A stretch of 11,618 nucleotides of DNA. It comes from a virus. Its lineage: Duplodnaviria > Heunggongvirae > Uroviricota > Caudoviricetes. This document shows, in pieces, positions 1 to 11,618 of the stretch (the first letter of the stretch is position 1; every line of letters begins with the position of its first letter). The notes beneath the pieces are model-generated. The model was not told the origin of the DNA. It did no database searches and saw only the letters and a list, made by a program, of their open reading frames with translations. The stretch spans positions 1 through 11,618 of the IMG/VR virus record IMGVR_UViG_2585427748_000011; one strand, given 5' to 3'. Both the position numbers and the translations under genes were made by a program.

Positions 1-333
1 ACTGGCATGTTTCATGATGTAACGCATGCCGGTGATGTATTGCCCCTCATGCTGACTGGCGCGGCTGTACGGGGGATTACCAAAGGCAGCACCTTTAAGC
101 TCCGCAAGACGTTCAGACCAGTCATGCGCCAGCGCGTTGTCTTCCGCAGTGTAATAAGCGGCACATTTGGCGTTATCACCATCAGTGAACAGATCCAGAA
201 CAAACGGGCCAAACAGGGTGTTAATTCCCCAGAAAATGTTGTCCGGCGTGCGCCACTGATCGCCCACTTCCTTCAGTTCATGGGCTGGTTTGTTTCGCAG
301 CTCCACCAGCGCCTGGCAATATTTATTACTCAT
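1..333 (-). CDS. Phage Dam-family DNA N6-adenine methyltransferase, N-terminal part only (gene continues beyond left window edge)
   Basis: Reverse-complement translation from ATG at 333-331: MSNKYCQALVELRNKPAHELKEVGDQWRTPDNIFWGINTLFGPFVLDLFTDGDNAKCAAYYTAEDNALAHDWSERLAELKGAAFGNPPYS..., containing an NPPY catalytic-type motif. The ATG overlaps the TAA stop of the upstream gene (coupling). Not in the ORF track because no stop lies within the window. Confidence 0.6.
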   Translation of the reverse strand, partial: MSNKYCQALVELRNKPAHELKEVGDQWRTPDNIFWGINTLFGPFVLDLFTDGDNAKCAAYYTAEDNALAHDWSERLAELKGAAFGNPPYSRASQHEGQYITGMRYIMKHAS

Positions 334-827
334 TAAGCCCCCACGTAATTCCCTGACAGATACCACTCTTCACCCGATGCAGCGCGCTTGCTGCTTTTCC
401 GTAAGCACCGCTCACGATGCGCCAGAAAATTGTTTCGTTCTGGCTGGGAGTGGCTTTCACGGAATGCCTCCATCCACACCGTTGCAGCTCGACGGAATAA
501 GCCCCTGGACTCCAGTTCTTCAGCCTGGCGGGTCAGGCACAAAATCACCCGGGGGTCGTTAGTGCCGACATAGAAATTGCGCACAGGTCTGGTTTCACGA
601 ACTGGTTGTGGTTCCGGCTCCTGCGCTCTCTCAGTCAGGCGCGGGAAATGTCTGCGTGTATCCCCTTCACAACGGTGAGCCACACGCCCACTCTGACGTA
701 ACTTGCTTGCTGACTGCAGAACGCGCTGCCGTGAGTAACCAGCAAAAGCATCTGCAATGTCTCCGGAAGTACACCCCGGATGGGCTTCAATGAATTTCTG
801 AACGTCATTCAAAAGACTCATGATCAC
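333..827 (-). CDS. Hypothetical phage protein, 164 aa (same length as K-12 CPS-53 YfdN as I recall; function unknown)
   Basis: ORF in track; ATG at 827-825 overlaps the TGA stop of the upstream replication gene (ATGA coupling); its own stop overlaps the start of the methyltransferase gene. Confidence 0.6.
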   Translation of the reverse strand: MIMSLLNDVQKFIEAHPGCTSGDIADAFAGYSRQRVLQSASKLRQSGRVAHRCEGDTRRHFPRLTERAQEPEPQPVRETRPVRNFYVGTNDPRVILCLTRQAEELESRGLFRRAATVWMEAFRESHSQPERNNFLAHRERCLRKSSKRAASGEEWYLSGNYVGA

Positions 828-1765
828 CCCCTGAATCCTGCCGGGATCTGGCTGTAGTCCACGTTGTCGTAACTGGCTTTGAAGTACGGGTCTTCGCGTT
901 TTTCGGTGTACGTGCTGACGGACGGTGATAAGCGCAGGGAAAGCTCATCCCATTTTTCCCGCAACTTCGACGGGCTGAGCACGTTACGGCACCAGAACGG
1001 ATCGCGGCTGACGCGGCTGTACATCTCGCAGATTTGTTTGTGAGTACGACCATCCTGCACACACATCAGGCGAATTTCGTTTGCCCAGGCTGTCCAGTTC
1101 GGTTCTTTGGGACGAACCACCTCGCCGTCACATTCGGCGGCTTGCTCGTACAGGGCGATGATTTTTTTCCAGAGCCACTGTGCGCAGGTCAAATCATCCT
1201 GCGTTCCCCACTGGCGCTTTTTAGGGCTGAATACAACCGCATCAGGATGGCGAGTTAAAAAATCCTGTTCATCCGTCTGCGTGTCCGGTTGCGAAGCGTC
1301 CGGACGAGAAGGTTTTTTATCTGACGGATCATGTTTTGATTTTACTGACGGATCCCCGCCAGATTCTGACGGGTGAAAACCCGCTTTTTTGCCAGATTTC
1401 GACGCATCAAATTTTGACGGGTCAGATTTTGATGCGTCAGATTTTGACGGGTCAGAATCTGACAGTTGAGAAAATGCCGCTGCCTGAAGCTTCGCAACGT
1501 TAAGCTGATAAACATTCGACGCATTGCGGTTACCCTGGCGACGCGCCTTACGTGTTAACCAGCCTTCTGCTTCCAGCCGTGCGATAGCCGTCCTGACGGT
1601 ACTCATCCCCGCGCCAATCTGACGGGCAATAGTTTCAATTGATGGCCAGCACACACCTTCGTCATTACTGAAATCAGCCAGGCGGGCCATAATTGCCACG
1701 CTGGATAATTTCATGCCTGATGCAGCGCAACCATCCCATACATAGCCGGTTAATTTAGTGCTCAT
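824..1765 (-). CDS. Phage replication initiation protein (O-like; N-terminal winged helix-turn-helix domain, repeat-encoded linker)
   Basis: 313-aa ORF; N-terminus (SVAIMARLADFSNDEGVCWPSIETIARQIGAGMSTVRTAIARLEAEGWLTRKA) resembles the HTH domain of phage replication initiators. Central low-complexity linker SDPSKSDASKSDPSKFDASKSG is encoded by tandem DNA repeats. RBS GAGG 7 nt upstream of ATG at 1765. Confidence 0.7.
   Translation of the reverse strand: MSTKLTGYVWDGCAASGMKLSSVAIMARLADFSNDEGVCWPSIETIARQIGAGMSTVRTAIARLEAEGWLTRKARRQGNRNASNVYQLNVAKLQAAAFSQLSDSDPSKSDASKSDPSKFDASKSGKKAGFHPSESGGDPSVKSKHDPSDKKPSRPDASQPDTQTDEQDFLTRHPDAVVFSPKKRQWGTQDDLTCAQWLWKKIIALYEQAAECDGEVVRPKEPNWTAWANEIRLMCVQDGRTHKQICEMYSRVSRDPFWCRNVLSPSKLREKWDELSLRLSPSVSTYTEKREDPYFKASYDNVDYSQIPAGFRG
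1318..1470. repeat. Iteron-like direct repeats (candidate replication origin) inside the replication initiator gene
   Basis: Core CTGACGG/TTGACGG/TTGATGC recurs at 1321, 1345, 1366, 1399, 1414, 1429, 1444, 1459. The last five copies are spaced exactly 15 bp apart (unit approx TTTTGACGGGTCAGA). Confidence 0.5.
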
Positions 1766-1774
1766 GACCGACCT

Positions 1775-2113
1775 CTATTTCCCTGAATTTACGACGAAAC
1801 TGTTCGAGCGGGCTGAAGCACTCATGCTCATAGCCTTCGCGGAGGTAGATAACTCGTTGTGTTTCCGGCTCCCAACGAATGACTCTGACGGGCACTCCGT
1901 AGTGATCTTTGAACCAGCGGTTAACTTGTCGCAAAGGACTGTCTCCTTCTGCCGGTTGAAATCACCCACAGCCCACTCAGCAAAGCTGTGGGTTACAATT
2001 TCCCTGTCACCTGGTACATTAACTGCATAGCAATACTCCACCTTCGCTTTTCCACCCGGTACAGGAAGCGCAATCAGTTGCGAGCGACGGTAGTGTGTTG
2101 TTAAACTGTTCAT
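1775..2113 (-). CDS. Hypothetical protein, 112 aa
   Basis: ATG at 2113-2111 overlaps the TGA stop of the upstream cII-position gene (ATGA). Stop at 1775-1777 is followed by GAGG and the ATG of the replication gene, so it fits the coupled minus-strand operon. Strand choice over the overlapping + ORF 1758..2030 rests on this context. Confidence 0.5.
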
Positions 2114-2718
2114 GCGTTAGTTTCTCCACAGTCACGACACGCCACGGCGCCCGGAGCTGCACACTCGCGGGCGTCATTACTTTCTGAAATGCAAAAGATT
2201 TTGTAGACCAGTGCTGCATGCTCCTGCAGCTTCGAAATTGAGAGATACAGCTCGTCGTTAATTGCTGTCTTCTCATGCGGTTCCACCACACCGTCTTCGA
2301 TTGCCGAACGAATCTGTCTGGAATAACTGCCAATCTGTTCAATGACTTCCAGCAGGCGCTGGTTAATATCGGCGTTGTCCACATCCTCGACGTCAGGAAG
2401 AGACACAAAGACGCCATTTGCAGACTGCGCCACAGCGTCAGCAATGAAGTGAGTTCCACCAGCACGTTGCAAAATCATTGCCCATCCCAGCGGGAAAATC
2501 TGATCGCCATCGGCACGAAGACGGTTAAATAATGCGTTTTCTGTTACATCCAGCCAGTCAGCTGCTTCAGCGTAACCACCCGGCAACGCTGCGATAGTTT
2601 TTCTGACAGCTTTCACGTACCACTCAGGCTGTTTTTCTACTTTCCAGTGATGCTTACCCACGGTTAGCCTCATCGTTCTGTGGTTTCTGTTAATCGATTT
2701 ATCCATTAGATTTTTCAT
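2110..2718 (-). CDS. Regulatory protein at the cII position of the immunity region (possibly phage CII/CP76- or YdaT-like); start uncertain
   Basis: Track ORF 2110..2775 begins with GTG at 2775 and would overlap the cro-like gene by 77 nt. In-frame ATGs at 2718 (MKNLMDKSI...) and 2706 (MDKSI..., overlapping the cro-like TAA) are more plausible. Functional call is by position and vague family recollection only. Confidence 0.5.
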
Positions 2719-2899
2719 AAAGCTCAGGTTTAAATGGCAACCGTCCGCAAGTTCTATATGCAGCTTCTGCTGCACGTCCTTTTGGAATTAACTGGCCCGG
2801 ACGGTTTCGCCACTGATAAACGGCTTCAGTTGTTATGCCGAAAAAAGCAGCAACTTTCTCAATACTGCCGAAGTAGCTTTCGATATCGTCAGTTGTCAT
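2699..2899 (-). CDS. Cro-like small HTH DNA-binding protein (Cro/YdaS-like)
   Basis: 66 aa, MTTDDIESYFGSIEKVAAFFGITTEAVYQWRNRPGQLIPKGRAAEAAY has an HTH signature. Divergent from the repressor gene; RBS GGAGGG 3-5 nt upstream of ATG at 2899. Confidence 0.65.
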   Translation of the reverse strand: MTTDDIESYFGSIEKVAAFFGITTEAVYQWRNRPGQLIPKGRAAEAAYRTCGRLPFKPELYEKSNG

Positions 2900-2996
2900 A
2901 CGCCCTCCAAACTAAGTTTTATTAGATGCTAATTACAAATCTATCTTTGGTCAATAAAAACTAAGATTACTTAGCAATTCAAGAAATGGTGCTCCT
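2900..2996. promoter_or_regulatory. Divergent immunity control region (OR-like): candidate PR-like promoter for the cro-like operon plus operator dyads
   Basis: On the minus strand: -35 TTGACC (plus coords 2949-2954), 17-bp spacer, -10 TAGCAT (2926-2931). 11-bp dyad AAACT-A-AGTTT at 2909-2919 over the predicted start/leader; partial copy AACTAAGAT at 2959-2967; CTAAG-ATTA-CTTAG at 2961-2974. No convincing repressor promoter found by eye. Confidence 0.4.
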
Positions 2997-3623
2997 ATGG
3001 AAACGGTTGGTCAGCGTATAAAAGCTCTGAGAAGAGTTACCGGAACGTCCCAGAAAGAATTGGGTAAATTTTGTGGAGTAAGCGACGTTGCTGTGGGGTA
3101 CTGGGAGAAAGACATCAATACCCCTGGTGGGGAGGCACTTTCGAAATTAGCGAAGTTCTTCAATACGTCAATAGATTACATTCTTTATGGTGCTGAGTTT
3201 GAAGGCAAACTCGTCACAAACATGCGCAGAGTTCCTGTAATATCGTGGGTTCAGGCTGGGCAGTTTACTGAGTGCAGGGCAGCAGAAGTGTTTAGTGAAG
3301 TGGACAAGTGGGTAGATACATCATTAAAGATTGGTGATAACTCATTTGCATTAGAGGTTAAAGGTGACTCCATGACTAACCCTAATGGCCTCCCAACAAT
3401 ACCAGAAGGCGCAACAGTGATTGTAGATCCAGATGCAGAACCTCGTCATGGAAAAATAGTCATCGCTCGACTTGATGGAACAAACGAAGCTACAGTAAAA
3501 AAATTAGTCATCGATGGCCCTCAAAAGTTTTTAGTGCCATTAAATCCTCGGTATCCCAACATCCCTATCAATGGTAATTGCCTTATCATTGGTGTAGTCA
3601 AAGGAGTTCAATACGAACTCTAA
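2997..3623 (+). CDS. CI-type prophage repressor (N-terminal HTH_XRE, C-terminal S24 LexA-like autopeptidase)
   Basis: 208 aa. N-terminus QRIKALRRVTGTSQKELGKFCGVSDVAVGYWEKD is an XRE-type HTH. C-terminal domain has the Ser motif GDSM and downstream Lys (ATVKKLV) of the S24 Ser-Lys dyad, and a LexA-like cleavage site VQAG-QF. Confidence 0.85.
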   Translation: METVGQRIKALRRVTGTSQKELGKFCGVSDVAVGYWEKDINTPGGEALSKLAKFFNTSIDYILYGAEFEGKLVTNMRRVPVISWVQAGQFTECRAAEVFSEVDKWVDTSLKIGDNSFALEVKGDSMTNPNGLPTIPEGATVIVDPDAEPRHGKIVIARLDGTNEATVKKLVIDGPQKFLVPLNPRYPNIPINGNCLIIGVVKGVQYEL

Positions 3624-3644
3624 GACCTCTCTTCTCTAACTAAG

Positions 3645-3678
3645 GCACCGAACTAAGAAAAGTTTGGTGTTTTCTCTT
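3645..3678 (+). terminator. Candidate intrinsic terminator downstream of the repressor gene
   Basis: Stem CACCGAACT (3646-3654) pairs with AGTTTGGTG (3661-3669), 9 bp with one G-U; loop AAGAAA; followed by TTTTCTCTT (3670-3678). The reverse strand has no U-tract. Confidence 0.5.
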
Positions 3679-3705
3679 GCCATAATAACTAAGTTAAGTT
3701 AGATT
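3677..3705 (+). promoter_or_regulatory. Candidate pL-like early-left promoter with operator dyad in the spacer (OL-like)
   Basis: -35 TTGCCA (3677-3682), 17-bp spacer, -10 TAGATT (3700-3705). Spacer contains dyad TAACT-A-AGTTA (3686-3696), same core as the dyad at 2909-2919. Identified by eye only. Confidence 0.3.
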
Positions 3706-3910
3706 TTATATCAAAGATAACGAACAGGCAGGACGCCCACGAAGTAGCCGCCTGGGGCATATGAAGTCCAGGATGATTCGTTGAGTCATGTTGTGCCACT
3801 AGGCACTCATGTTAAAGCAGGTGTATGAAATGAAAGTCCAGATTTTAAACAATAACTGTGAAGTCGTTTGGGCGTAAAACATGACCGCGCGTAGACCAAG
3901 GGAGGAAAAA

Positions 3911-4087
3911 GTGGGAATAGTTAGAAATCAAGCAGATATATTGAAAATCAGCTCTGAATTGCTTGGAGTTTTGAAAAGTGAGCTCACCGCACATGGCATC
4001 GAGCCCACTGACGAAAATTTAAGTTGGGTTTTGTCGATTATTCAACAATCACTCAAGCCCAGCCTCAGCAAACTTTTTATCGAGTAG
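3911..4087 (+). CDS. Small hypothetical protein (58 aa from GTG 3911; 68 aa if ATG 3881)
   Basis: Strong SD GGGAGG (3899-3905) 6 nt before in-frame GTG 3911; ATG 3881 has no SD. AT-rich island; overlaps the 3' end of a convergent minus-strand ORF by 39 bp. Confidence 0.35.
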   Translation: MGIVRNQADILKISSELLGVLKSELTAHGIEPTDENLSWVLSIIQQSLKPSLSKLFIE

Positions 4088-4240
4088 TGCTTCGAACTTA
4101 TCGTAAAGCTTGCTTATGTCGTCTATCGGGTTTTCTGACGTACTGTAATTTTTATCTGATGTCATGGCAGCAGTCTGATATGCAGTGTGAGTCTTAACCG
4201 ATAGTTGGAATAAATAAAGAATTTTTTCTTCTTTGGTCAT
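4049..4240 (-). CDS. Small hypothetical protein, 63 aa (MTKEEKILYLFQLSVKTHTAYQTAAMTSDKNYSTSENPIDDISKLYDKFEALLDKKFAEAGLE)
   Basis: ATG at 4240-4238 preceded on the minus strand by AAGGAA at about 8 nt spacing. The track ORF 4049..4282 starts further upstream without an RBS. AT-rich, convergent with the repressor and the + strand small ORF. Confidence 0.45.
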   Translation of the reverse strand: MTKEEKILYLFQLSVKTHTAYQTAAMTSDKNYSTSENPIDDISKLYDKFEALLDKKFAEAGLE

Positions 4241-4495
4241 AACTATTTCCTTCTTGGCTATATGAAAACACCAAGATACCACCGAGCCTGAAGTGGTGAA
4301 AAGACAGGCACATAACAGCTAAGTATTTTCAACCAGAGAGAATCCTTAGCGTTGTGGTGAATGCGGCTCAGCGCACGCGGGTTAAGGTTGAGGCTGACAG
4401 TCGACCTTCTGTGGATACCCACCCGCCTGGTGTGCAACTTTCGCCAGGCACCGGGAGGCACCCGGCACCACAACTTTATGCTGTGTGTAGTCCTC

Positions 4496-4541
4496 GCGGT
4501 ACCAGTTTGTACACTTGCTTCCGGCTGGTACCGCTCTTTTT
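4496..4541 (+). terminator. Terminator-like hairpin in the untranslated leader (possible 3' end of a small RNA or an antiterminated terminator)
   Basis: Perfect 10-bp stem GCGGTACCAG (4496-4505) / CTGGTACCGC (4525-4534), 19-nt loop, then TCTTTTT (4535-4541). The loop is long for a canonical terminator. Confidence 0.45.
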
Positions 4542-4630
4542 ACAAAACAGAGAAGAACATCACCGGACGACGGGCTCATAACCCAATCCATCCGGGCGGC
4601 TGCCACCGCAGGTGTTCTTCTCTGTTTTGT
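4542..4630 (+). other. Long perfect inverted repeat (18 bp arms, 53-bp spacer) predicted to form an extended RNA stem; candidate RNase III processing site or structured regulatory RNA
   Basis: ACAAAACAGAGAAGAACA (4542-4559) is the exact reverse complement of TGTTCTTCTCTGTTTTGT (4613-4630). The stem can extend with G-U pairs into the preceding U-tract. No ORF with an RBS spans it. Confidence 0.4.
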
Positions 4631-4678
4631 GGAGAAACCAACCGACCTTGCAGGGTCGATATGATTAGGAGCAGAAAA

Positions 4679-5041
4679 ATGGCTAGCGAACGCAGTACTG
4701 ATGTGCAGGCATTTATTGGGGAGCTGGACGGCGGCGTATTTGAAACCAAAATCGGCGCAGTTCTCAGTGAAGTCGCTTCCGGTGTGATGAACACGAAAAC
4801 CAAAGGTAAGGTCTCACTCAACCTGGAAATCGAACCATTTGATGAGAACCGTGTGAAAATCAAACACAAACTCTCATATGTTCGCCCGACTAACCGCGGG
4901 AAAATTTCCGAAGAAGACACCACCGAAACGCCGATGTATGTCAATCGCGGTGGTCGCCTGACTATTCTGCAGGAAGACCAGGGACAATTACTGACTCTTG
5001 CCGGTGAACCTGACGGAAAACTCCGCGCAGCAGGTCATTAA
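4679..5041 (+). CDS. Hypothetical phage early protein, 120 aa (YfdP-like by length and position)
   Basis: ATG 4679 preceded by AGGAG (4667-4671, spacing 7). The track ORF 4361..5041 carries a 106-codon Arg/Cys-rich N-terminal extension across the structured region, judged non-coding. Confidence 0.7.
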   Translation: MASERSTDVQAFIGELDGGVFETKIGAVLSEVASGVMNTKTKGKVSLNLEIEPFDENRVKIKHKLSYVRPTNRGKISEEDTTETPMYVNRGGRLTILQEDQGQLLTLAGEPDGKLRAAGH

Positions 5042-5106
5042 TATCGTTCTTAATTAACCGATTATTTATCTCATCACTGAATATCTTTATATAGTGAGGA
5101 CTTATT

Positions 5107-5931
5107 ATGTCTCAGAACTTAGACGCAACCGCAATTAATCAAATCCATGCCCTTATTTCTGCTCAGGGTGTTAATGAAATTATCAGTAAGATTGGTGCCG
5201 ATGCTGTGGCATTGCCTGAGAATTTCCGCATTCATGATCTGGAAAAATTTAATTTAAATCGCTTCCGTTTCCGTGGTGCGCTTTCCACTGCCAGCATCGA
5301 TGACTTTACCCGTTATTCTAAAGATCTTGCAGATGAAGGCACCCGCTGCTTTATCGATGCCGATAATATGCGTGCCGTCAGTGTGCTTAACCTGGGTACT
5401 ATTGGTGAACCAGGTCACGCAGATAACACCGCCACACTCAAACTGAAAAAGACAGCACCGTTCTCTGCTCTGTTGTCTGTTAACGGCGAGCGTAACTCCC
5501 AGAAGTCACTGGCAGAATGGATTGAAGACTGGGCCGACTATCTTGTGGGCTTTGATGCTAATGGTGACGCTATTAAGGCAACAAAAGCGGCTGCGGCGGT
5601 CCGTAAAATCACGATTGAAGCAAACCAGACCGCTGATTTTGAAGATAATGACTTCAGCGGCAAACGCTCCCTGATGGAGTCTGTCGAAGCGAAGACCAAA
5701 GATATTATGCCAGTGGCATTTAAATTTAAATGCGTTCCGTTTGAAGGCCTGAAAGAACGTCCGTTTAAATTACGCCTCAGCATTATCACTGGCGATCGTC
5801 CTGTACTGGTTCTGCGCATTATTCAGCTGGAAGCAGTGCAGGAAGAAATGGCTAACGAATTTCGTGATCTGCTTGTTGAGAAATTTAAAGACAGCAAAGT
5901 AGAAACCTTTATTGGTACTTTCACCGCCTGA
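5107..5931 (+). CDS. Hypothetical phage protein, 274 aa (YfdQ/DUF2303-like by recollection)
   Basis: ATG 5107 preceded by GTGAGGA (5094-5100); clean 274-aa ORF; family assignment is from memory of length and gene order in CPS-53. Confidence 0.7.
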
Positions 5932-5943
5932 TTTCATTACTGC

Positions 5944-5965
5944 AAATGCCCCTGCGGGGGCATTT
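5944..5965 (+). terminator. GC-rich hairpin between genes (weak terminator or mRNA-stabilising stem)
   Basis: AAATGCCCC (5944-5952) / GGGGCATTT (5957-5965), 9-bp perfect stem with UGCG loop. The 3' flank ATGGAAAC lacks a real U-tract. Confidence 0.3.
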
Positions 5966-6059
5966 ATGGAAACATAATTGACTCAATAATCGCCTGATGG
6001 CGAGGGTTTTCTTTAACCAAAATTCAGCGCGGTGCAGCGCATATAAAGTGGAGAACAAA

Positions 6060-6596
6060 ATGTCATTTATTAAAACTTTTTCCGGGAAGCATTTTTATTA
6101 TGACAGGATAAATAAAGACGACATCGTGATTAACGATATCGCGGTTTCCCTTTCAAATATCTGCCGCTTTGCCGGTCATCTTTCTCACTTCTACAGTGTC
6201 GCCCAACATGCGGTGCTTTGCAGCCAGCTGGTGCCGCAGGAATTTGCTTTTGAAGCGTTAATGCATGATGCAACAGAAGCGTATTGCCAGGATATTCCCG
6301 CTCCACTGAAACGCCTTCTTCCTGACTATAAACGGATGGAAGAAAAAATAGACGCCGTAATCCGTGAGAAATACGGGTTACCCCCGGTTATGAGCACGCC
6401 CGTGAAATATGCCGATCTCATCATGCTGGCAACCGAACGCCGCGATCTCGGGCTTGATGATAGCTCTTTCTGGCCTGTACTGGAAGGTATCCCGGCAACA
6501 GAGATGTTCAAAGTGATTCCACTGTCGCCAGGCCATGCCTACGGGATGTTTATGGAACGTTTTAACGAGTTATCGGAGTTACGCAAATGCGCATGA
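6060..6596 (+). CDS. HD-domain 5'-deoxynucleotidase (YfbR/YfdR-like dNMP phosphohydrolase)
   Basis: 178 aa from ATG 6060 (GGAG at 6049-6052); HD-domain signature H...HD...D in VAQHAVLCSQLVPQEFAFEALMHDATEAYCQDIPAPLKRLL. The track ORF start at 5997 lacks an RBS. Confidence 0.75.
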   Translation: MSFIKTFSGKHFYYDRINKDDIVINDIAVSLSNICRFAGHLSHFYSVAQHAVLCSQLVPQEFAFEALMHDATEAYCQDIPAPLKRLLPDYKRMEEKIDAVIREKYGLPPVMSTPVKYADLIMLATERRDLGLDDSSFWPVLEGIPATEMFKVIPLSPGHAYGMFMERFNELSELRKCA

Positions 6597-6937
6597 ATGT
6601 TTTCGAAATGGAAGGGTTTCTTCGCGGGAAATGTGTACCACGAGATCTGAAAGTGAATGAAACAAATGCTGAGTATCTGGTGCGTAAATTCGATGAAGTA
6701 CGTGCTGAGGCTCGCAACGAGGGTATTAACTATACCGCAAGCCGTCTTGCTGCGGCTTTCAATCACGGATTTATCAATAAGTCTTTACGTGAAGTTTTCG
6801 ACGTTACACGCATGATTCTGTCAGCGAAAGAAGAGTTGGCTAATGAACCACACCCGATTGATGGCCTGTCCGGTGAATATGCGGAGAAATCCCTAGAAGA
6901 ATGGGCGGAACAGATTCGCAAAGGAGGCAACCAGTGA
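6587..6937 (+). CDS. Hypothetical early protein X, 116 aa (C-terminus ...EEWAEQIRKGGNQ)
   Basis: GGAG (6575-6578) 8 nt before ATG 6587; alternative ATG 6593 forms ATGA with the upstream stop. Its stop TGA overlaps the GTG start of the next gene (GTGA). Confidence 0.6.
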   Translation: MRMNVFEMEGFLRGKCVPRDLKVNETNAEYLVRKFDEVRAEARNEGINYTASRLAAAFNHGFINKSLREVFDVTRMILSAKEELANEPHPIDGLSGEYAEKSLEEWAEQIRKGGNQ

Positions 6938-7614
6938 GCAAGATTGACTATCAAGAACTGCGCGAGGCGGCGGAACAGGCAACGCAAGATGAATGGGTAG
7001 CATATATTTTGCCGGGTCATAACGGCATTTATCCTGCGCGCACGTCTGAGGGTAGGCATTGCGGATACTTTATTGACTGGCCTGGCGTCTGTCAGGGGCG
7101 GGAGAGCATCAGCATCAGAACCTACGCAGTGAATTGCAATGACGCATGGCTAAACACCGAAGGTGATGACATCTCCGGCTCATACGTTAAGTACAAAGAC
7201 CATCAGGAAGTGGTTGCCGCTCTTGAGGCCAAGTGCGCGGCGCTGGCTGCTGAGAATGCGGGAATAAAGTCTGCAATTCCAAAATCACGGGATATTGAGG
7301 ATGACAATGACAATATGGATGACGTATCTCTCGCGGAAGACTTCGGGTTCAATCATGCAATAGAACGGATGAGGAGACAGATACCTGAAACGCCAACCAC
7401 TGATGCTTTCCTGGCTGAAGTCCGGGCGCAGGGGGTGGATGCTGCTATAGAAGCTGCAAAAAATCTGGTGGCCCAAGAATATGAGTGTAAGGATTTCAAA
7501 GCGGCGCAGAGTGATTGCTGTATGCACCCTGGTTCAGACCTGGTAGGGAAGGTTGAAATGACTGAGTGGTTAGTTGACTTTGCTGCCCAGCTTCGCAAAG
7601 GAGGCAATCAGTGA
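6934..7614 (+). CDS. Hypothetical early protein Y, 226 aa, mosaic (N-terminus like protein Z, C-terminus like protein X)
   Basis: AAGGAGG (6921-6927) 6 nt before GTG 6934. N-terminus SKIDYQELREAAEQA; C-terminus ...DFAAQLRKGGNQ; coiled-coil-like middle. The track start ATG 6901 has no RBS. Confidence 0.6.
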   Translation: MSKIDYQELREAAEQATQDEWVAYILPGHNGIYPARTSEGRHCGYFIDWPGVCQGRESISIRTYAVNCNDAWLNTEGDDISGSYVKYKDHQEVVAALEAKCAALAAENAGIKSAIPKSRDIEDDNDNMDDVSLAEDFGFNHAIERMRRQIPETPTTDAFLAEVRAQGVDAAIEAAKNLVAQEYECKDFKAAQSDCCMHPGSDLVGKVEMTEWLVDFAAQLRKGGNQ

Positions 7615-8147
7615 GCGAAATTAATTACCAGGCACTGCGTGAGGTGGCGGAACGTGCAATTCCAGCAATGGAACGCCTGTTAATGTTGCCAGTTGATGAT
7701 GATTTGTTAAGTGAACAGGAACTTAAAGATTACGGTGTGGATATTGATGCGCTCAATGCCTTCAAATTTCTGACCGGACCAGAAACCGTGCTGGCACTAC
7801 TGGATGAACGGGAAAGAAACCAGCAATACATCAAACGCCGCGACCAGGAGAACGAGGATATTGCGCTTACGGTTGGGAAGCTGCGCGTTGAGCTTGAAGC
7901 AGCAAAATCAAAACTCAACGAGCAGCGCGAGTATTACGAGGGAGTTATCTCTGATGGGTGCAAGCGTATTGCTGAACTGGAAGCGCGGGAAGTTCAATTA
8001 CCGACTCGCTACGACCTTCGATATGGACACCCGATAAATGCAGATGAGCGACAAGTCATGATACCTAAAGAAAATGGCAGTTGGCTTTACCTGATTGACC
8101 TAGAACACGCATTACGCGTCGCTGACATTCGCATCAAAGGAGAGTGA
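7611..8147 (+). CDS. Hypothetical early protein Z, 178 aa (N-terminus SEINYQALREVAERA; coiled-coil-like C-terminal half)
   Basis: AAGGAGG (7598-7604) 6 nt before GTG 7611, which overlaps the stop of Y (GTGA). The junction sequence is near-identical to the X/Y junction. Confidence 0.6.
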   Translation: MSEINYQALREVAERAIPAMERLLMLPVDDDLLSEQELKDYGVDIDALNAFKFLTGPETVLALLDERERNQQYIKRRDQENEDIALTVGKLRVELEAAKSKLNEQREYYEGVISDGCKRIAELEAREVQLPTRYDLRYGHPINADERQVMIPKENGSWLYLIDLEHALRVADIRIKGE

Positions 8148-8148
8148 T

Positions 8149-8664
8149 ATGGCGTTAACACACCACGAACTCTGTCAGATTGCGTACAAGTTCCTTAAGC
8201 GCAACGGGTTCAAGGTTTGCTTTCATGACCGCTTTGTTGCTGTAACCAGTACCGGAGAACAGCCAGATGCTATGGGATTCAGAAATTCAGCATCATGCCT
8301 GATAGAGGCGAAGTGTTCTCGTGCTGACTTGTTGGCAGATAGAAAAAAGCGTTTCCGTAAAAATCCCTCACTTGGCATGGGCGACTGGCGATTCTTTATT
8401 AGTGAGCCGGAAATTATTTCAGTTGAGGATTTACCTCCCGGCTGGGGATTACTTCACGTTGTTAACGGAAGAGTACGGAAAGTACATGGATGGCCCAGGG
8501 GTAATTGCTGTTGGGGTAATCCTGACGATAAGCCATTTACCGGGAATAAGCAGGTTGAATGCGATTACATGTTATCTGCATTAAGGCGCATGGAGCTAAG
8601 AGGACACCTTAATGAAATATATGACGGTGTAATTGTTAATAAGAAAGAAGGAAACGCAGCATGA
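8149..8664 (+). CDS. PD-(D/E)xK nuclease-superfamily protein (MmcB-like by recollection)
   Basis: 171 aa; RBS AGGAGAG before ATG 8149; motif D...E-x-K in GEQPDAMGFRNSASCLIEAKCSRAD. Confidence 0.55.
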   Translation: MALTHHELCQIAYKFLKRNGFKVCFHDRFVAVTSTGEQPDAMGFRNSASCLIEAKCSRADLLADRKKRFRKNPSLGMGDWRFFISEPEIISVEDLPPGWGLLHVVNGRVRKVHGWPRGNCCWGNPDDKPFTGNKQVECDYMLSALRRMELRGHLNEIYDGVIVNKKEGNAA

Positions 8665-9530
8665 CCACTTTAACCGACAAAGAACTGATTAAAGAAATCA
8701 GAGAGCGTATAGGCAGCCTGGACGTCCGAGACAATATTGAGCGTCGGGCTTATGAAATTGCTCTGGCATCGCTGGAACGCGAACAGATTCGCCACGAGCA
8801 TGCCAAATGGTCTGACTCCACATTTGGCTGCGTTGGCCCCATTGGTCCGCTGAAACATCTCTCAAAAGAGGCACTGGAAGCCGCAGCCGAACCAGACGAT
8901 CTTAGCGAGTGGGCTGATATGCAGTTTCTGTTGTGGGATGCACAGCGCCGTGCTGGCATCAGCGATGCTGAAATTACCGCTGCTATGGAAGATAAATTGA
9001 AGATCAACATGGAACGCCAGTGGCCTGAACCAAAAGATGGTGAGCCTCGCTTGCACATTAAAGAACCCGGCAACTCTCCGGTAACTCCGGCTCGCCTGCC
9101 TGGTGGTTTCACCATTGAGGATGCGAAGGCATTACATGAAGACCTGGTTCGCAGCCACATAAGCCAGGCTTTAAGTGGTGAAAAGATGAAAAAGAACGAT
9201 CGCGATGCTGATTTGCGCTGGATTCATGGCGTAATAGTTCAGGCAGCGTGGTTTGTAAAAGCATCACTGGAGCAAAATGCACTATCGGGCAACTATCCGG
9301 TAACTCCGGATGGTTGGATAAGCTGTAGTGAGCGAATGCCGAAAAAGAATCAGAACGTACTTATTTCGGTGAATTTCGATAGTGATCTGGTTGAGCCGCT
9401 AATATGCTCCGCACGCTATACCGGAAGTACCTTTCGGCGAGGACAAGCAACGATTAAGCCGGGTAATGGTATTGAGCAGGCAACCCACTGGATGCCGCTG
9501 CCAGAACCGCCGCAGGAGGTGAATCAATGA
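8661..9530 (+). CDS. Two-domain phage protein: N-terminal MazG-like NTP pyrophosphohydrolase-type region (DUF550-like), C-terminal DUF551-like domain
   Basis: 289 aa; ATG 8661 overlaps the upstream stop (ATGA), RBS GAAGGAAA. N-terminal acidic helical motif EALEAAAE...EWADMQFLLWDAQRRAGISDAEI; C-terminal WISCSERMPKK...THWMPLPEPP. Domain names are from memory. Confidence 0.55.
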   Translation: MTTLTDKELIKEIRERIGSLDVRDNIERRAYEIALASLEREQIRHEHAKWSDSTFGCVGPIGPLKHLSKEALEAAAEPDDLSEWADMQFLLWDAQRRAGISDAEITAAMEDKLKINMERQWPEPKDGEPRLHIKEPGNSPVTPARLPGGFTIEDAKALHEDLVRSHISQALSGEKMKKNDRDADLRWIHGVIVQAAWFVKASLEQNALSGNYPVTPDGWISCSERMPKKNQNVLISVNFDSDLVEPLICSARYTGSTFRRGQATIKPGNGIEQATHWMPLPEPPQEVNQ

Positions 9531-9610
9531 GCTGGCCTGATGCAATCGTAACTCTGGGGATGGTATTCGCAGTAGCGTTTGTTGTGTACTCGATTTGTCG
9601 ATGGGGATAA
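9527..9610 (+). CDS. Small hydrophobic peptide, 27 aa (MSWPDAIVTLGMVFAVAFVVYSICRWG), predicted single transmembrane helix
   Basis: Strong SD AGGAGGT (9514-9520) 6 nt before ATG 9527, which overlaps the upstream TGA (ATGA). Too short to appear in the ORF track. Confidence 0.45.
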   Translation: MSWPDAIVTLGMVFAVAFVVYSICRWG

Positions 9611-9614
9611 CCAC

Positions 9615-9857
9615 ATGTTCGCTTTGATTCAACGCGGTCAGATATACACGGACAGAGCTGGATACCCCGTGGTGATTACTCGCATCACTGAGCACTCAGT
9701 GTTCTTTCGACGGATGGACGGACGATCCGGGCGGGTACGCATTGGTGAGTTAAACTGCCTGTTCGAACATATTGACCACCAGGAGTACCGCAAAATTCTC
9801 GCGGACACTGAGCAGGAAAAGCACCTGAAAAAATTACGAGCCATAAAAAGGAAGTAA
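9615..9857 (+). CDS. Hypothetical small phage protein, 80 aa (possibly DUF4222-like)
   Basis: ATG 9615 with weak SD GGGGA; the track ORF starts at TTG 9579 inside the preceding peptide ORF. Basic C-terminus KHLKKLRAIKRK. Confidence 0.5.
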   Translation: MFALIQRGQIYTDRAGYPVVITRITEHSVFFRRMDGRSGRVRIGELNCLFEHIDHQEYRKILADTEQEKHLKKLRAIKRK

Positions 9858-9860
9858 AGA

Positions 9861-10007
9861 ATGAATAAAGCATTTGAACGATGGGTCCACCAGCGTTACG
9901 GCAATCGCTATGACCTGACGCGAGATGTTGACGGCTTCTACTGTCGTGAAGTTGTGAAGCGAATGTTTGAAGTGTGTTGCCACTGCCGTGGGCTGAGTGT
10001 TGTGTGA
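9861..10007 (+). CDS. Small Cys-rich protein, 48 aa (MNKAFERWVHQRYGNRYDLTRDVDGFYCREVVKRMFEVCCHCRGLSVV)
   Basis: AAGGAAG 6 nt before ATG 9861; its stop lies beside the GAGG RBS of xis. Four Cys in the C-terminal 20 residues. Not in the ORF track (below length cutoff). Confidence 0.4.
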   Translation: MNKAFERWVHQRYGNRYDLTRDVDGFYCREVVKRMFEVCCHCRGLSVV

Positions 10008-10015
10008 GGTAATAC

Positions 10016-10252
10016 ATGGGCAATGTGATTCAACTGGCTCCCAATGAATGGGTTTGTGAAAGCGTTCTTATCGCAATTACCGGGCTCAAACCAGGCACAA
10101 TTCTTCGGGCCCGGAAAGAATGCTGGATGGTTGGAAGAGAGTATATTCACGTATCACCAGACGGTAATCCAAAGCCTTCCAGTGAATGTATGTATAACAG
10201 AAAAGCAATAGATGCCTGGGTCGCCTCAATGAAAAACAAACAACCCAGGTGA
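10016..10252 (+). CDS. xis: Excisionase-like protein (Xis)
   Basis: 78 aa immediately upstream of the integrase; MGNVIQLAPNEWVCESVLIAITGLKPGTILRARKECWMVGREYIHVSPDGNPKPSSECMY matches my recollection of enterobacterial phage excisionase-like proteins; RBS GAGG. Confidence 0.7.
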   Translation: MGNVIQLAPNEWVCESVLIAITGLKPGTILRARKECWMVGREYIHVSPDGNPKPSSECMYNRKAIDAWVASMKNKQPR

Positions 10253-10307
10253 TTTAATATCATGAAATATGTAAGCTCGTATCGCTCTTGGGCGTCTGGA
10301 GGTATCG

Positions 10308-11618
10308 ATGGATAAAGTCAAATATCCAACAGGCGTCGAAAACCACGGCGGCACATTACGCATCTGGTTTAATTTTAAAGGTAAACGTGTCAGGGAAAAT
10401 CTTGGTGTCCCTGACACTGCCAAGAACAGGAAGATCGCCGGGGAACTGCGGACATCAGTATGTTTTGCCATCCGCACAGGAAGCTTTGATTATGCTGCAC
10501 AGTTCCCTGACTCCCCCAACCTTCAGGCTTTTGGGGTAAGTAAAAAAGAAATTACGGTGAAGGAACTTGAAGAAAAGTGGCTGGATCTGAAACGAATGGA
10601 AATCTCTGCAAATGCATTCAATCGCTATGAATCCGTTGCAAGAACGATGGTTCCGAAAATTGGAGGCAGTAGACTGGTGTCATCGGTAACCAAAGAGGAA
10701 TTGCTGTATATCAGGAAAGATTTGCTGACCGGGTATCAGAATTCAATGAAAAACAAAGCAGCAAAAGGACGGAGCGTTGTTACTGTAAATTATTACATGA
10801 CGACAATCGCTGGAATGTTTCAGTTTGCTGCAGATCACGGTTACTTAGAAGCAAATCCCTTCCAGGGAATTAAGCCTCTTAAAAGAGCCAGGGCAGAGCC
10901 AGATCCGCTAACTCGTGACGAATTTATTCGCCTGATAGATGCTTGCCGACATCAGCAGACGAAAAACCTGTGGTCATTGGCTGTGTACACAGGAATGCGT
11001 CACGGTGAACTGGTCTCCCTGGCCTGGGAAGATATCGATCTGAAGGCAGGAACAATTACCATCAGGCGCAATTATACGAAACTTGGTGAGTTCACTCTAC
11101 CGAAAACTGAAGCAAGCACAAACAGGGTTGTGCACCTTATCCAGCCCGCTATCAGTGTCCTGAAAAATCAGGCTGAAATGACAAGACTGGGTAAGCAGTA
11201 CAACATCAAGGTGCAACTACGTGAATATGGACGTTCAGTGAACCATGAATGTACTTTCGTGTTTAACCCTCAAGTGGTTAGAAAAAGCGAACAGGTAGGT
11301 TTTGTCTACAAAGTCGATTCTGTAGGTGACTCATGGGAAACAGCCATTAAGCGTGCAGGGATCAGGCATCGAAAGGCATACCAGTCACGACACACTTATG
11401 CGTGCTGGTCATTATCTGCCGGAGCAAACCCAAGCTTCATTGCCAGCCAGATGGGCCATGCAAGTGCCCAGATGGTATTCAATGTATACGGAGCATGGAT
11501 GACTGACAGCAATGCAGAACAGATCGCAATGCTGAATCAGAAGCTGACAGATTATGTCCCAATGATGCCCCATAGTCACCAAAGTGACACCAGAGGCTTA
11601 TTAAAATCAGTAAGTTAA
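10308..11618 (+). CDS. int: Phage tyrosine integrase (lambda-Int family site-specific recombinase)
   Basis: 436 aa; N-terminal arm-binding-type region (GTLRIWFNFKGKRVRENLG). Catalytic-domain motifs: R in YTGMRHGEL, H-x-x-R-type motif at AYQSRHTYACW, nucleophile Tyr in VFNVYGAW. RBS GGAGG 5 nt upstream. Stop codon is the last 3 bases of the window. Confidence 0.9.
   Translation: MDKVKYPTGVENHGGTLRIWFNFKGKRVRENLGVPDTAKNRKIAGELRTSVCFAIRTGSFDYAAQFPDSPNLQAFGVSKKEITVKELEEKWLDLKRMEISANAFNRYESVARTMVPKIGGSRLVSSVTKEELLYIRKDLLTGYQNSMKNKAAKGRSVVTVNYYMTTIAGMFQFAADHGYLEANPFQGIKPLKRARAEPDPLTRDEFIRLIDACRHQQTKNLWSLAVYTGMRHGELVSLAWEDIDLKAGTITIRRNYTKLGEFTLPKTEASTNRVVHLIQPAISVLKNQAEMTRLGKQYNIKVQLREYGRSVNHECTFVFNPQVVRKSEQVGFVYKVDSVGDSWETAIKRAGIRHRKAYQSRHTYACWSLSAGANPSFIASQMGHASAQMVFNVYGAWMTDSNAEQIAMLNQKLTDYVPMMPHSHQSDTRGLLKSVS

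Follow-up and report, generated by a model that had tools for sequence, protein, structure and literature searches.

Small single-pass regulators of the inner membrane, such as AcrZ, MgtS, MgrB, KdpF and those of the SgrT type, are known from enterobacteria. The phage genes of the exo-xis or b-region are non-essential, yet they influence lysogenisation and induction (PMC4195576), and 'The Cryptic Bacterial Microproteome' offers a catalogue of predicted small open reading frames (ORFs) (PMC11188072). Here, we describe a small ORF of 84 nucleotides (nt) and 27 codons at positions 9527-9610 of the plus strand in an 11,618-nt stretch of Caudoviricetes DNA (IMG/VR record IMGVR_UViG_2585427748_000011, positions 1 to 11,618), which in its full length we refer to as the window. 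The ORF, which encodes MSWPDAIVTLGMVFAVAFVVYSICRWG, is conserved and almost universally unannotated. Judged from the sequences of its relatives, it is very probably a real, translated gene for a membrane micropeptide.

The product is akin to the AcrZ/MgtS-type regulators by description and not by sequence: it has fewer than 50 amino acids, is essentially one helix, is preceded by a good Shine-Dalgarno sequence, is encoded in an operon and, by analogy, would be expected to make helix-helix contact with a larger membrane protein. Unlike those regulators, which are chromosomal, it is carried by phages in mosaic arrangements, has no Pfam or NCBIfam relation to them, and carries N-terminal W-P-D/E-A and C-terminal C-R-W-G motifs that are peculiar to the phage peptide. 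It shares a region and operon, small size, dispensability and mosaic distribution with the exo-xis/b-region genes ea8.5, ea22, orf60a, orf61, orf63 and orf73 (PMC4195576). The small ORF is not one of the named ORFs of that region, however, and its product is predicted to be embedded in the membrane, in contrast to Ea8.5 and Ea22, for which solubility has been described. As a hydrophobic intergenic small ORF under purifying selection and without a Pfam domain, it also resembles the class catalogued in PMC11188072, although the peptide strings were not found in the supplements of that work.

The reading frame opens with ATG at 9527-9529 and closes with TAA at 9608-9610. Its Shine-Dalgarno sequence, AGGAGGT (9514-9520, plus strand), lies inside the final codons of the upstream gene (Q-E-V-N-Q), is separated from the ATG by a 6-nt spacer, and pairs with the 3' end of 16S rRNA in a predicted duplex of -11.6 kcal/mol. 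The start codon overlaps the upstream stop codon (TGA, 9528-9530) in an ATGA sequence at 9527-9530 of the plus strand. A first-pass annotation of the window had reported a strong ribosome-binding site and translational coupling to the preceding gene, and the ORF, the AGGAGGT and the ATGA overlap were all found where it had placed them. The same overlap was present in all 80 loci of a sample anchored on the next gene, and it recurs behind other upstream gene families in a sample that had been selected for ATGA. The downstream junction, a point absent from the first-pass annotation, is also tight. The next gene encodes an 80-amino-acid DUF4222 protein (9615-9857, plus strand, by Pfam) and starts 4 nt past the small-ORF stop codon, so that the junction (9603-9617, plus strand) reads GGGGA, TAA, a 4-nt spacer and ATG. 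The GGGGA at 9603-9607, within codons W26-G27 of the small ORF, is probably the Shine-Dalgarno sequence of the DUF4222 gene.

The case for a selected gene is carried by natural variation at the locus. A 5'-anchored pattern scan of IMG/VR, combined with loci fetched earlier, gave 130 matches. Family ORFs of 27 codons made up 117 of these and represented 51 different nucleotide sequences. Among these, the third codon position was the most variable (entropy 0.93 versus 0.48 and 0.28), and the pairwise ratio of non-synonymous to synonymous polymorphism was 0.38 in the frame of the ORF versus 0.87 and 2.05 in the other frames. A second sample, free of pattern bias, consisted of 80 IMG/VR loci picked solely because their DUF4222 gene was at least 99% identical to that of the window. 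An intact 27-codon ORF lay directly upstream in 79 of these loci, the remaining one having an extra G in a G-run. The first-pass annotation had proposed that loss of the ORF in relatives with conserved flanks would speak against the gene; these loci were examined for such loss, and the ORF withstood the comparison. In the same sample, two alleles that differ at 9 of 27 residues (MSWPDAIV... and MTWPEAL...) stand before the same DUF4222 gene.

A third sample, collected with a 3'-anchored pattern, contained approximately 121 true members, of which approximately 117 were open. Its variants comprised two TGG to TAG changes at codon 3, two start-region frameshifts, three in-frame deletions, two stop-loss alleles running past codon 27 and two GTG starts, the remainder being intact. 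A minimum spanning tree of a pooled set of alleles (77 distinct, in 249 copies) contained 257 changes, distributed 65/50/142 over codon positions 1/2/3. Synonymous changes numbered 139 and non-synonymous changes 118, giving an omega of ~0.29 (p=1e-22), whereas the other two frames gave 0.88 and 1.20, neither significant. The pattern of substitution thus indicates that the ORF is under purifying selection on its amino-acid sequence, in this frame only, and is not open by chance. The first-pass proposal of a real gene for a small hydrophobic peptide gains support from this codon-position signal.

These data also bear on whether the site is a gene at all, and not a recombination 'linker' between mosaic modules, an RNA element, or an antisense ORF of 30 amino acids (9524-9616, minus strand). 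The site does sit exactly at mosaic joints, and the antisense ORF is codon-aligned with the small ORF and open in the window and two close relatives. The excess of third-position changes, however, is found in the sense frame only, and the antisense ORF was rejected as the selected reading on codon-position grounds, because its own first codon position would then be the most variable. An RNA element was ruled out by the folding and family searches: both strands fold less stably than shuffled sequences (z = +1.6 for the plus strand and +1.4 for the minus strand), and no Rfam family matched at the small-ORF site. Alleles that differ at about a third to half of their residues nevertheless keep the length, the hydrophobicity and the end motifs, and altogether a non-genic origin of the conservation is hardly credible.

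The gene has been largely passed over in public annotation. An 84-nt gap, with no feature over the ORF, was seen in all ten public records inspected, three of them bacterial or plasmid records (E. coli AHB12, NCTC9112 and plasmid pEC2_5) and seven phage records (JLK-2012, 933W, VT2-Sakai, BP-4795, ArgO145, YYZ-2008 and vB_EcoS-613R10). The small ORF of PhiR49_2 is likewise without a feature. In pEC2_5, a plasmid of 98 kb, the unannotated ORF (L132, 2516-2599) sits in the interval that separates a DUF551 gene from its downstream neighbour. The peptide is annotated in a few GenBank entries (ETI78407.1, ASL58468.1 and AOM45384.1, the last as 'bacteriophage protein'), and RefSeq holds WP_255625547.1 of strain CFSAN029787, a 40-amino-acid N-extended form from a locus that has, by chance, an in-frame ATG further upstream. 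The peptide had been presented as unannotated and as routinely missed by ORF callers; the second statement agrees with the blank 84 nt of annotated records, while the first is correct for the ten records and has to be relaxed for these few entries. An ORF of 84 nt falls under the length that many gene callers report. Furthermore, a ribosome-profiling (Ribo-seq) analysis of strain Sakai was unable to report a 27-residue product because it scored only ORFs of at least 30 amino acids (PMC5597208).

Database comparisons placed the peptide in no described family. The window peptide had no match in Pfam, NCBIfam, PHROGs v4, PADLOC or the PDB chains, and its relatives matched only weakly (E of 0.019 at best), the targets being unrelated Pfam families and functionally uncharacterised PHROGs. 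The peptide strings had no match in the searchable literature, nor did they occur in supplementary files of the translatome work on EDL933 and Sakai or of a preprint on the enterobacterial microproteome. In a protein homologue search, the 44-amino-acid stop-to-stop extension of the peptide recovered just two clusters, both N-extended calls. A profile search of 1.84 billion representatives returned 33 matches and no link to a known longer protein; nearly all were the same family with extensions, fusions or frameshifts, and the exceptions (P0027, P0040 and P0052) were long proteins that matched mainly in the query's non-coding N-terminal extension. A 90%-identity protein collection groups the 27-amino-acid peptide with DUF551 proteins of 121 amino acids (for example P0016 and P0003), and contig-end fragments of the peptide carry the label 'DUF551 domain-containing protein, partial'. 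Kinship between the peptide and the 121-amino-acid proteins was considered and set aside, since the association appears to be an artefact of clustering or labelling.

The Shine-Dalgarno sequence and the ORF travel together as a block of ~100 nt, which is found joined to four or more upstream genes that are unrelated to one another. The upstream partners include DUF551 genes with pyrophosphohydrolase or Ea22 N-domains, L0139 of 933W, a family of 114-167 amino acids ending in ...GLISVEDILR (114 amino acids in ArgO145) and a gene of 189 amino acids in CFSAN029787; the last three have no Pfam domain. Downstream, the block is followed by DUF4222-xis-int, by hokW/sokW (933W and VT2-Sakai), by an opposite-strand toxin-antitoxin pair (ArgO145), by a KilA-N gene or other genes, and in several cases by terminator-like hairpins. 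The 3' mosaic joint falls right after the stop codon and the 5' joint ~15-20 nt upstream of the ORF, and the block therefore sets the last residues of the upstream protein (…QEVNQ). In nearly all contexts the Shine-Dalgarno sequence is AGGAGGT (-11.6 kcal/mol) or GGAGGA (-9.3 kcal/mol).

This modularity is informative about two alternatives. In the first, only the act of translation would matter, with the ORF delivering ribosomes or keeping the mRNA unfolded while the peptide itself is functionless. Such a cis-acting role would suit the tight start/stop coupling on both sides of the ORF in the window and the position of the DUF4222 Shine-Dalgarno sequence within the last two codons. Because the block is equally conserved without a following gene, however, that sequence or coupling alone cannot explain its conservation: it is kept just as well where the next feature is hok/sok, a gene on the other strand or a terminator-like hairpin. 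Given, in addition, the selection on amino acids (omega ~0.29) and a length fixed at 27 codons, we regard this alternative as very improbable.

In the second alternative, the ORF would be a detached or alternative C-terminal membrane anchor that tethers the upstream 'Ea'-type protein through non-covalent pairing or through occasional fusion or frameshifting. The small ORF is indeed always immediately 3' of an upstream gene and overlaps it, natural fusions to an Ea22-like coiled coil exist (P0044, 143 amino acids; P0051, 206 amino acids), and mini-ORFs of similar appearance follow DUF551-like genes in distant phages (L112 and L109, described below). Against these stand the unrelated families of the upstream partners, and the fusions are rare cluster representatives compared with hundreds of separate copies. 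Programmed frameshifting into the peptide was rejected, as no slippery site precedes the upstream stop codon and the peptide has a conserved ATG and strong Shine-Dalgarno sequence of its own. A role as anchor is improbable on this evidence, if somewhat less so than a purely cis-acting one.

The element is widespread. A 101-nt version of it was found in 1112 of 5426 complete E. coli genomes (~20%), at 1481 places. Plasmids account for 150 of these places, and the plasmids that were examined or listed are 85-98 kb in size, carry Ea22/DUF551 arrays and are probably phage-plasmids. By tblastn, the element was present in 95 phage records, mostly Shiga toxin (Stx)-converting and other lambdoid coliphages; phage lambda gave no match among the 60 listed of these 95 records. 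Among representatives of one genome per species, the core family was found in E. coli and Shigella flexneri, and the peptide of the Shigella copy (L475) is the same as that of the window. No homologue was detected in the E. coli K-12 prophages CPS-53, which carries the DUF551 gene yfdS, and Rac, which carries xisR, and the particular gene mosaic of the window was not located in the 5426 complete E. coli genomes. Two short contigs from other genera also carry the small ORF: a 431-nt contig of a Xanthomonas pisi assembly (L491), with a peptide identical to that of 933W, and a 369-nt contig of an Acinetobacter idrijaensis assembly (L559), with an E. coli-phage ORF. Both are most likely assembly contamination.

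The peptide is predicted to form a single transmembrane helix flanked by an acidic N-tail (MSWPD) and a basic C-tail (RWG). AlphaFold2, run on the 44-amino-acid stop-to-stop translation, gave one continuous helix over peptide residues 3-26 (W3-W26), with a block-mean predicted local distance difference test score (pLDDT) of 92-96 across the greater part of the helix. Residues 6-24 contain no charge and have a mean Kyte-Doolittle hydropathy of 2.42; the hydrophobic single-span peptide described in the first-pass annotation is thus recovered by both methods. The distance from Trp3 to Trp26 is 23 residues, about the thickness of a bilayer including its interfaces, and one Trp is expected near either membrane interface. 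In all three core-family alleles tested, the N-tail has a charge of -1 (D/E5) and the C-tail a charge of +1 (R25). The hydrophobic moment is no higher than that of shuffled sequences, and the helix is therefore not amphipathic. The most conserved positions are A6, G11, A15, A17, Y21, S22, I23, C24, R25 and W26.

A lipoprotein signal at Y-S-I-C was considered and rejected by inspection: the tetrapeptide fits the lipobox consensus poorly, and processing there would leave a product of 4 residues. In topology, the peptide may be compared with proteins of the Pf3-coat type; there is no signal peptide, and a short acidic N-tail is followed by a hydrophobic span and a basic and aromatic R-W end, which is predicted to be cytoplasmic. 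Unlike the Pf3 coat protein, the peptide is shorter, is not a virion protein and is encoded by an early-operon gene.

The gene order of the window assigns the small ORF to an operon. On the plus strand, an S24/helix-turn-helix repressor of the cI type (2997-3623) is followed, according to Pfam and PHROG scans, by a DUF2303 (YfdQ-like) gene, a YfbR-like gene, two Ead/Ea22-like genes, a gene of 171 amino acids and the gene that overlaps the small ORF. This upstream gene (8661-9530, plus strand; 289 amino acids) encodes a dATP/dGTP pyrophosphohydrolase domain joined to DUF551 by Pfam, and its last five codons contain the small-ORF Shine-Dalgarno sequence. The small ORF is followed by the DUF4222 gene, an ORF of 48 amino acids, the DUF1233 excisionase gene xis (10016-10252, plus strand) and the integrase gene int (10308 to the window end, plus strand), the last two assigned by Pfam and PHROG; a CII-like gene runs in the opposite direction. 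No promoter-like site was found on either strand between 8600 and 10400, and the sole terminator-like match in that scan falls within the DUF4222 gene. This single-strand order, from repressor through DUF551, small ORF and DUF4222 to xis and int with no promoter-like site nearby, bears out the earlier placement of the ORF in a prophage early operon. By gene content, we identify the operon as the leftward early (pL-type) operon of a lambdoid prophage and the position of the small ORF as the exo-xis/b-region.

On balance, we favour a model in which the small ORF is a delayed-early gene for an inner-membrane peptide, oriented N-out/C-in, that would act by helix-helix contact with a membrane protein. 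Ribosomes finishing the DUF551 gene would terminate at the TGA within the ATGA, and either reinitiation at that site or fresh ribosome loading on AGGAGGT would yield the peptide of 27 residues. Following the positive-inside rule, and by analogy with the Pf3 coat, this peptide would enter the inner membrane unaided by a signal peptide and adopt an N-out/C-in orientation. Its helix could then pack inside the bilayer against transmembrane helices of a larger host or phage membrane protein, with the conserved small residues A6, G11, A15 and A17 and the C-terminal Y-S-I-C-R-W-G as candidate contacts, and the outcome may be the tuning of a membrane process in early lytic growth or in the lysis-lysogeny decision. 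Packing within the membrane appears the most likely mode of action because the peptide has no soluble domain, is uniformly hydrophobic and is not amphipathic. The locus points the same way: neither an antitoxin RNA nor a promoter-like site proper to the gene was found, its ribosome-binding site is not occluded, and it is co-expressed with early genes.

Prophage peptides of such size and extreme hydrophobicity are also typical of type I toxins (Hok, Ldr, Ibs, ShoB and TisB), and the product might instead be a host-toxic peptide that depolarises the membrane by oligomerising in the manner of Hok, Ibs, ShoB or TisB, or as a mini-holin. The small residues G11, A13, A15 and A17 could aid self-association, the small ORF directly adjoins hokW/sokW on their upstream side in 933W and VT2-Sakai, and null alleles recur, as expected were expression costly. 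Type I toxin genes, however, are kept translationally silent, whereas the Shine-Dalgarno sequence of the small ORF is strong and accessible within unstructured RNA (z = +1.56). Neither an antisense RNA, a promoter-like site of its own, an inhibitory fold-back of the mRNA nor a separate transcription unit was found; the ORF is ATGA-coupled inside an operon and co-transcribed with early genes that are needed before lysis. Furthermore, the helix is not amphipathic, no defence or toxin model matched, and ~97% of copies are intact. The first-pass annotation had mentioned host toxicity and modulation of membrane proteins as two possibilities; the anatomy of the peptide is in better keeping with the second than with a type I toxin, and we consider toxicity unlikely, though the least unlikely of the alternatives to intramembrane modulation.

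Several observations weigh against a conserved intramembrane modulator. An amber codon (TGG to TAG at codon 3) occurs in phiSTEC1589-Stx1c (L214, 1201-1284) and in Shigella phage POCJ13 (L215, 1201-1284), two IMG/VR copies have a frameshift in the start region, and E. coli G6/7 has a 1-nt deletion (L281, ~1039-1125) that shifts the frame into that of DUF4222. From its sequence, the last allele would fuse the N-terminal half of the helix to DUF4222 as a hybrid. Residues of the N-tail are also replaced in the 3'-anchored sample, W3R and P4S/T being found in 7 copies each. Because null alleles occur, the gene is dispensable, and it decays in some prophages; ~97% of copies stay open, and nulls amount to a few per cent. 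The two Ead/Ea22-like fusions P0044 and P0051 are natural, in-frame and tail-anchored in appearance, and if functional they would reverse the orientation of the helix. No one-sided conserved face of the helix was found (conservation moment 2.45 of 17.56). Finally, sequence patterns or a loose peptide regular expression governed the choice of the 5'- and 3'-anchored samples and of the pooled alleles, which exaggerates how invariant the pattern positions look.

The two amber alleles are otherwise diverged across the ORF, and an upstream ...GAAGGAGGTACGCCA segment is common to both, which points to either a recombined null 5' end or recurrent inactivation. Among other unusual alleles, P0033, P0034, P0036 and P0039 contain hexanucleotide-type expansions in the helix (…GIAMAMAMAMAMAVAL… and …AVAVAVAVAL…), of the form (AM)n or (AV)n, that add 4-8 residues, and stop-loss extensions occur.

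Beyond the core family, the pattern searches recovered many mini-ORFs of 23-37 amino acids in which M-[NST]-W-P-D/E-A leads straight into a hydrophobic helix, most of them ending in K/R (for example MNWPEAILGSVFLIVIAAVILGLAIITK, MNWPEAFAAAVTAICVAAVIIAMTRM, MSWPEAFFGAVFIICVAWVYVTAIKDKDD and MNWPEAIFGIIIAIVIAWVLVTIIKN). They come from unrelated viral contigs with a local GC content of 30% to 64%, and many lie in gene arrays and overlap an adjacent gene by 4 nt. When proline was specified by CCG in the pattern, transmembrane mini-ORFs made up 10 of 73 distinct peptides outside the core family, compared with 0 of 48 for a control in which W and P were swapped (Fisher p=0.005). The N-tail charge was -1 in all five look-alikes tested and the C-tail charge +1 in three of the five. 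Look-alikes are also found in prophage-like regions of Achromobacter aloeverae, Bilophila wadsworthia and Bdellovibrio-like metagenome-assembled genomes, and none had a Pfam or PHROGs match. In Achromobacter aloeverae (L535, 2501-2584) the mini-ORF precedes an ORF that by eye looks like an excisionase gene and then an integrase-like ORF; in an IMG/VR contig (L109, 2501-2590) it lies just upstream of an integrase-like ORF; and at a third locus (L112, 2501-2572) it comes just after a DUF551-like gene. These gene orders mirror that of the window.

We tentatively raise the possibility that the E. coli/Shigella family is one branch of a wider, undescribed class of phage micropeptides composed of M-x-W-P-D/E-A, a helix and usually a short basic tail. 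In peptides of this length, homology and convergence would look the same. Were the look-alikes homologous, function would depend on a conserved WPEA cap, short and periplasmic, and the target would be a host inner-membrane machine common to Proteobacteria, for example a membrane insertase, a protease or a DNA-entry or division component, acted on in the early lytic or lysis-lysogeny phase. A genuine WPEA-helix class would constitute a new family of phage micropeptides across several bacterial phyla.

For the core family, the consequences are more immediate. About one-fifth of complete E. coli genomes, together with Shigella and the Stx phages 933W and VT2-Sakai, carry a gene that is missing from annotation and from the family libraries searched, and annotating it closes a systematic gap. 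It is also a candidate gene for the exo-xis/b-region, whose genes affect lysogeny and Stx-prophage induction and are poorly understood. Small phage membrane peptides are already known, and the gene adds to them rather than introducing a new principle. At 27 residues, the peptide is easy to synthesise, tag and mutate, and the natural amber and frameshift alleles can serve as null controls.

Some further features of the window were noted. The ORF between DUF4222 and xis (9861-10007, plus strand) encodes 48 amino acids, is Cys-rich (…CREVVKRMFEVCCHCRG…) and matches phrog_3871, of unknown function; it has no Pfam family and is called merely hypothetical in relatives. At 4321-4543 (plus strand), an Rfam search gave a match to the STnc100 small RNA family (48.5 bits against a gathering score of 47), which overlaps the start of an ORF of 226 amino acids without a Pfam family (4361-5041). 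The 289-amino-acid upstream gene is intact in E. coli AHB12 (L001, 862-1731) and identical there to that of the window; in RefSeq, the AHB12 gene is split into a DUF550 and a DUF551 pseudogene fragment, both partial.

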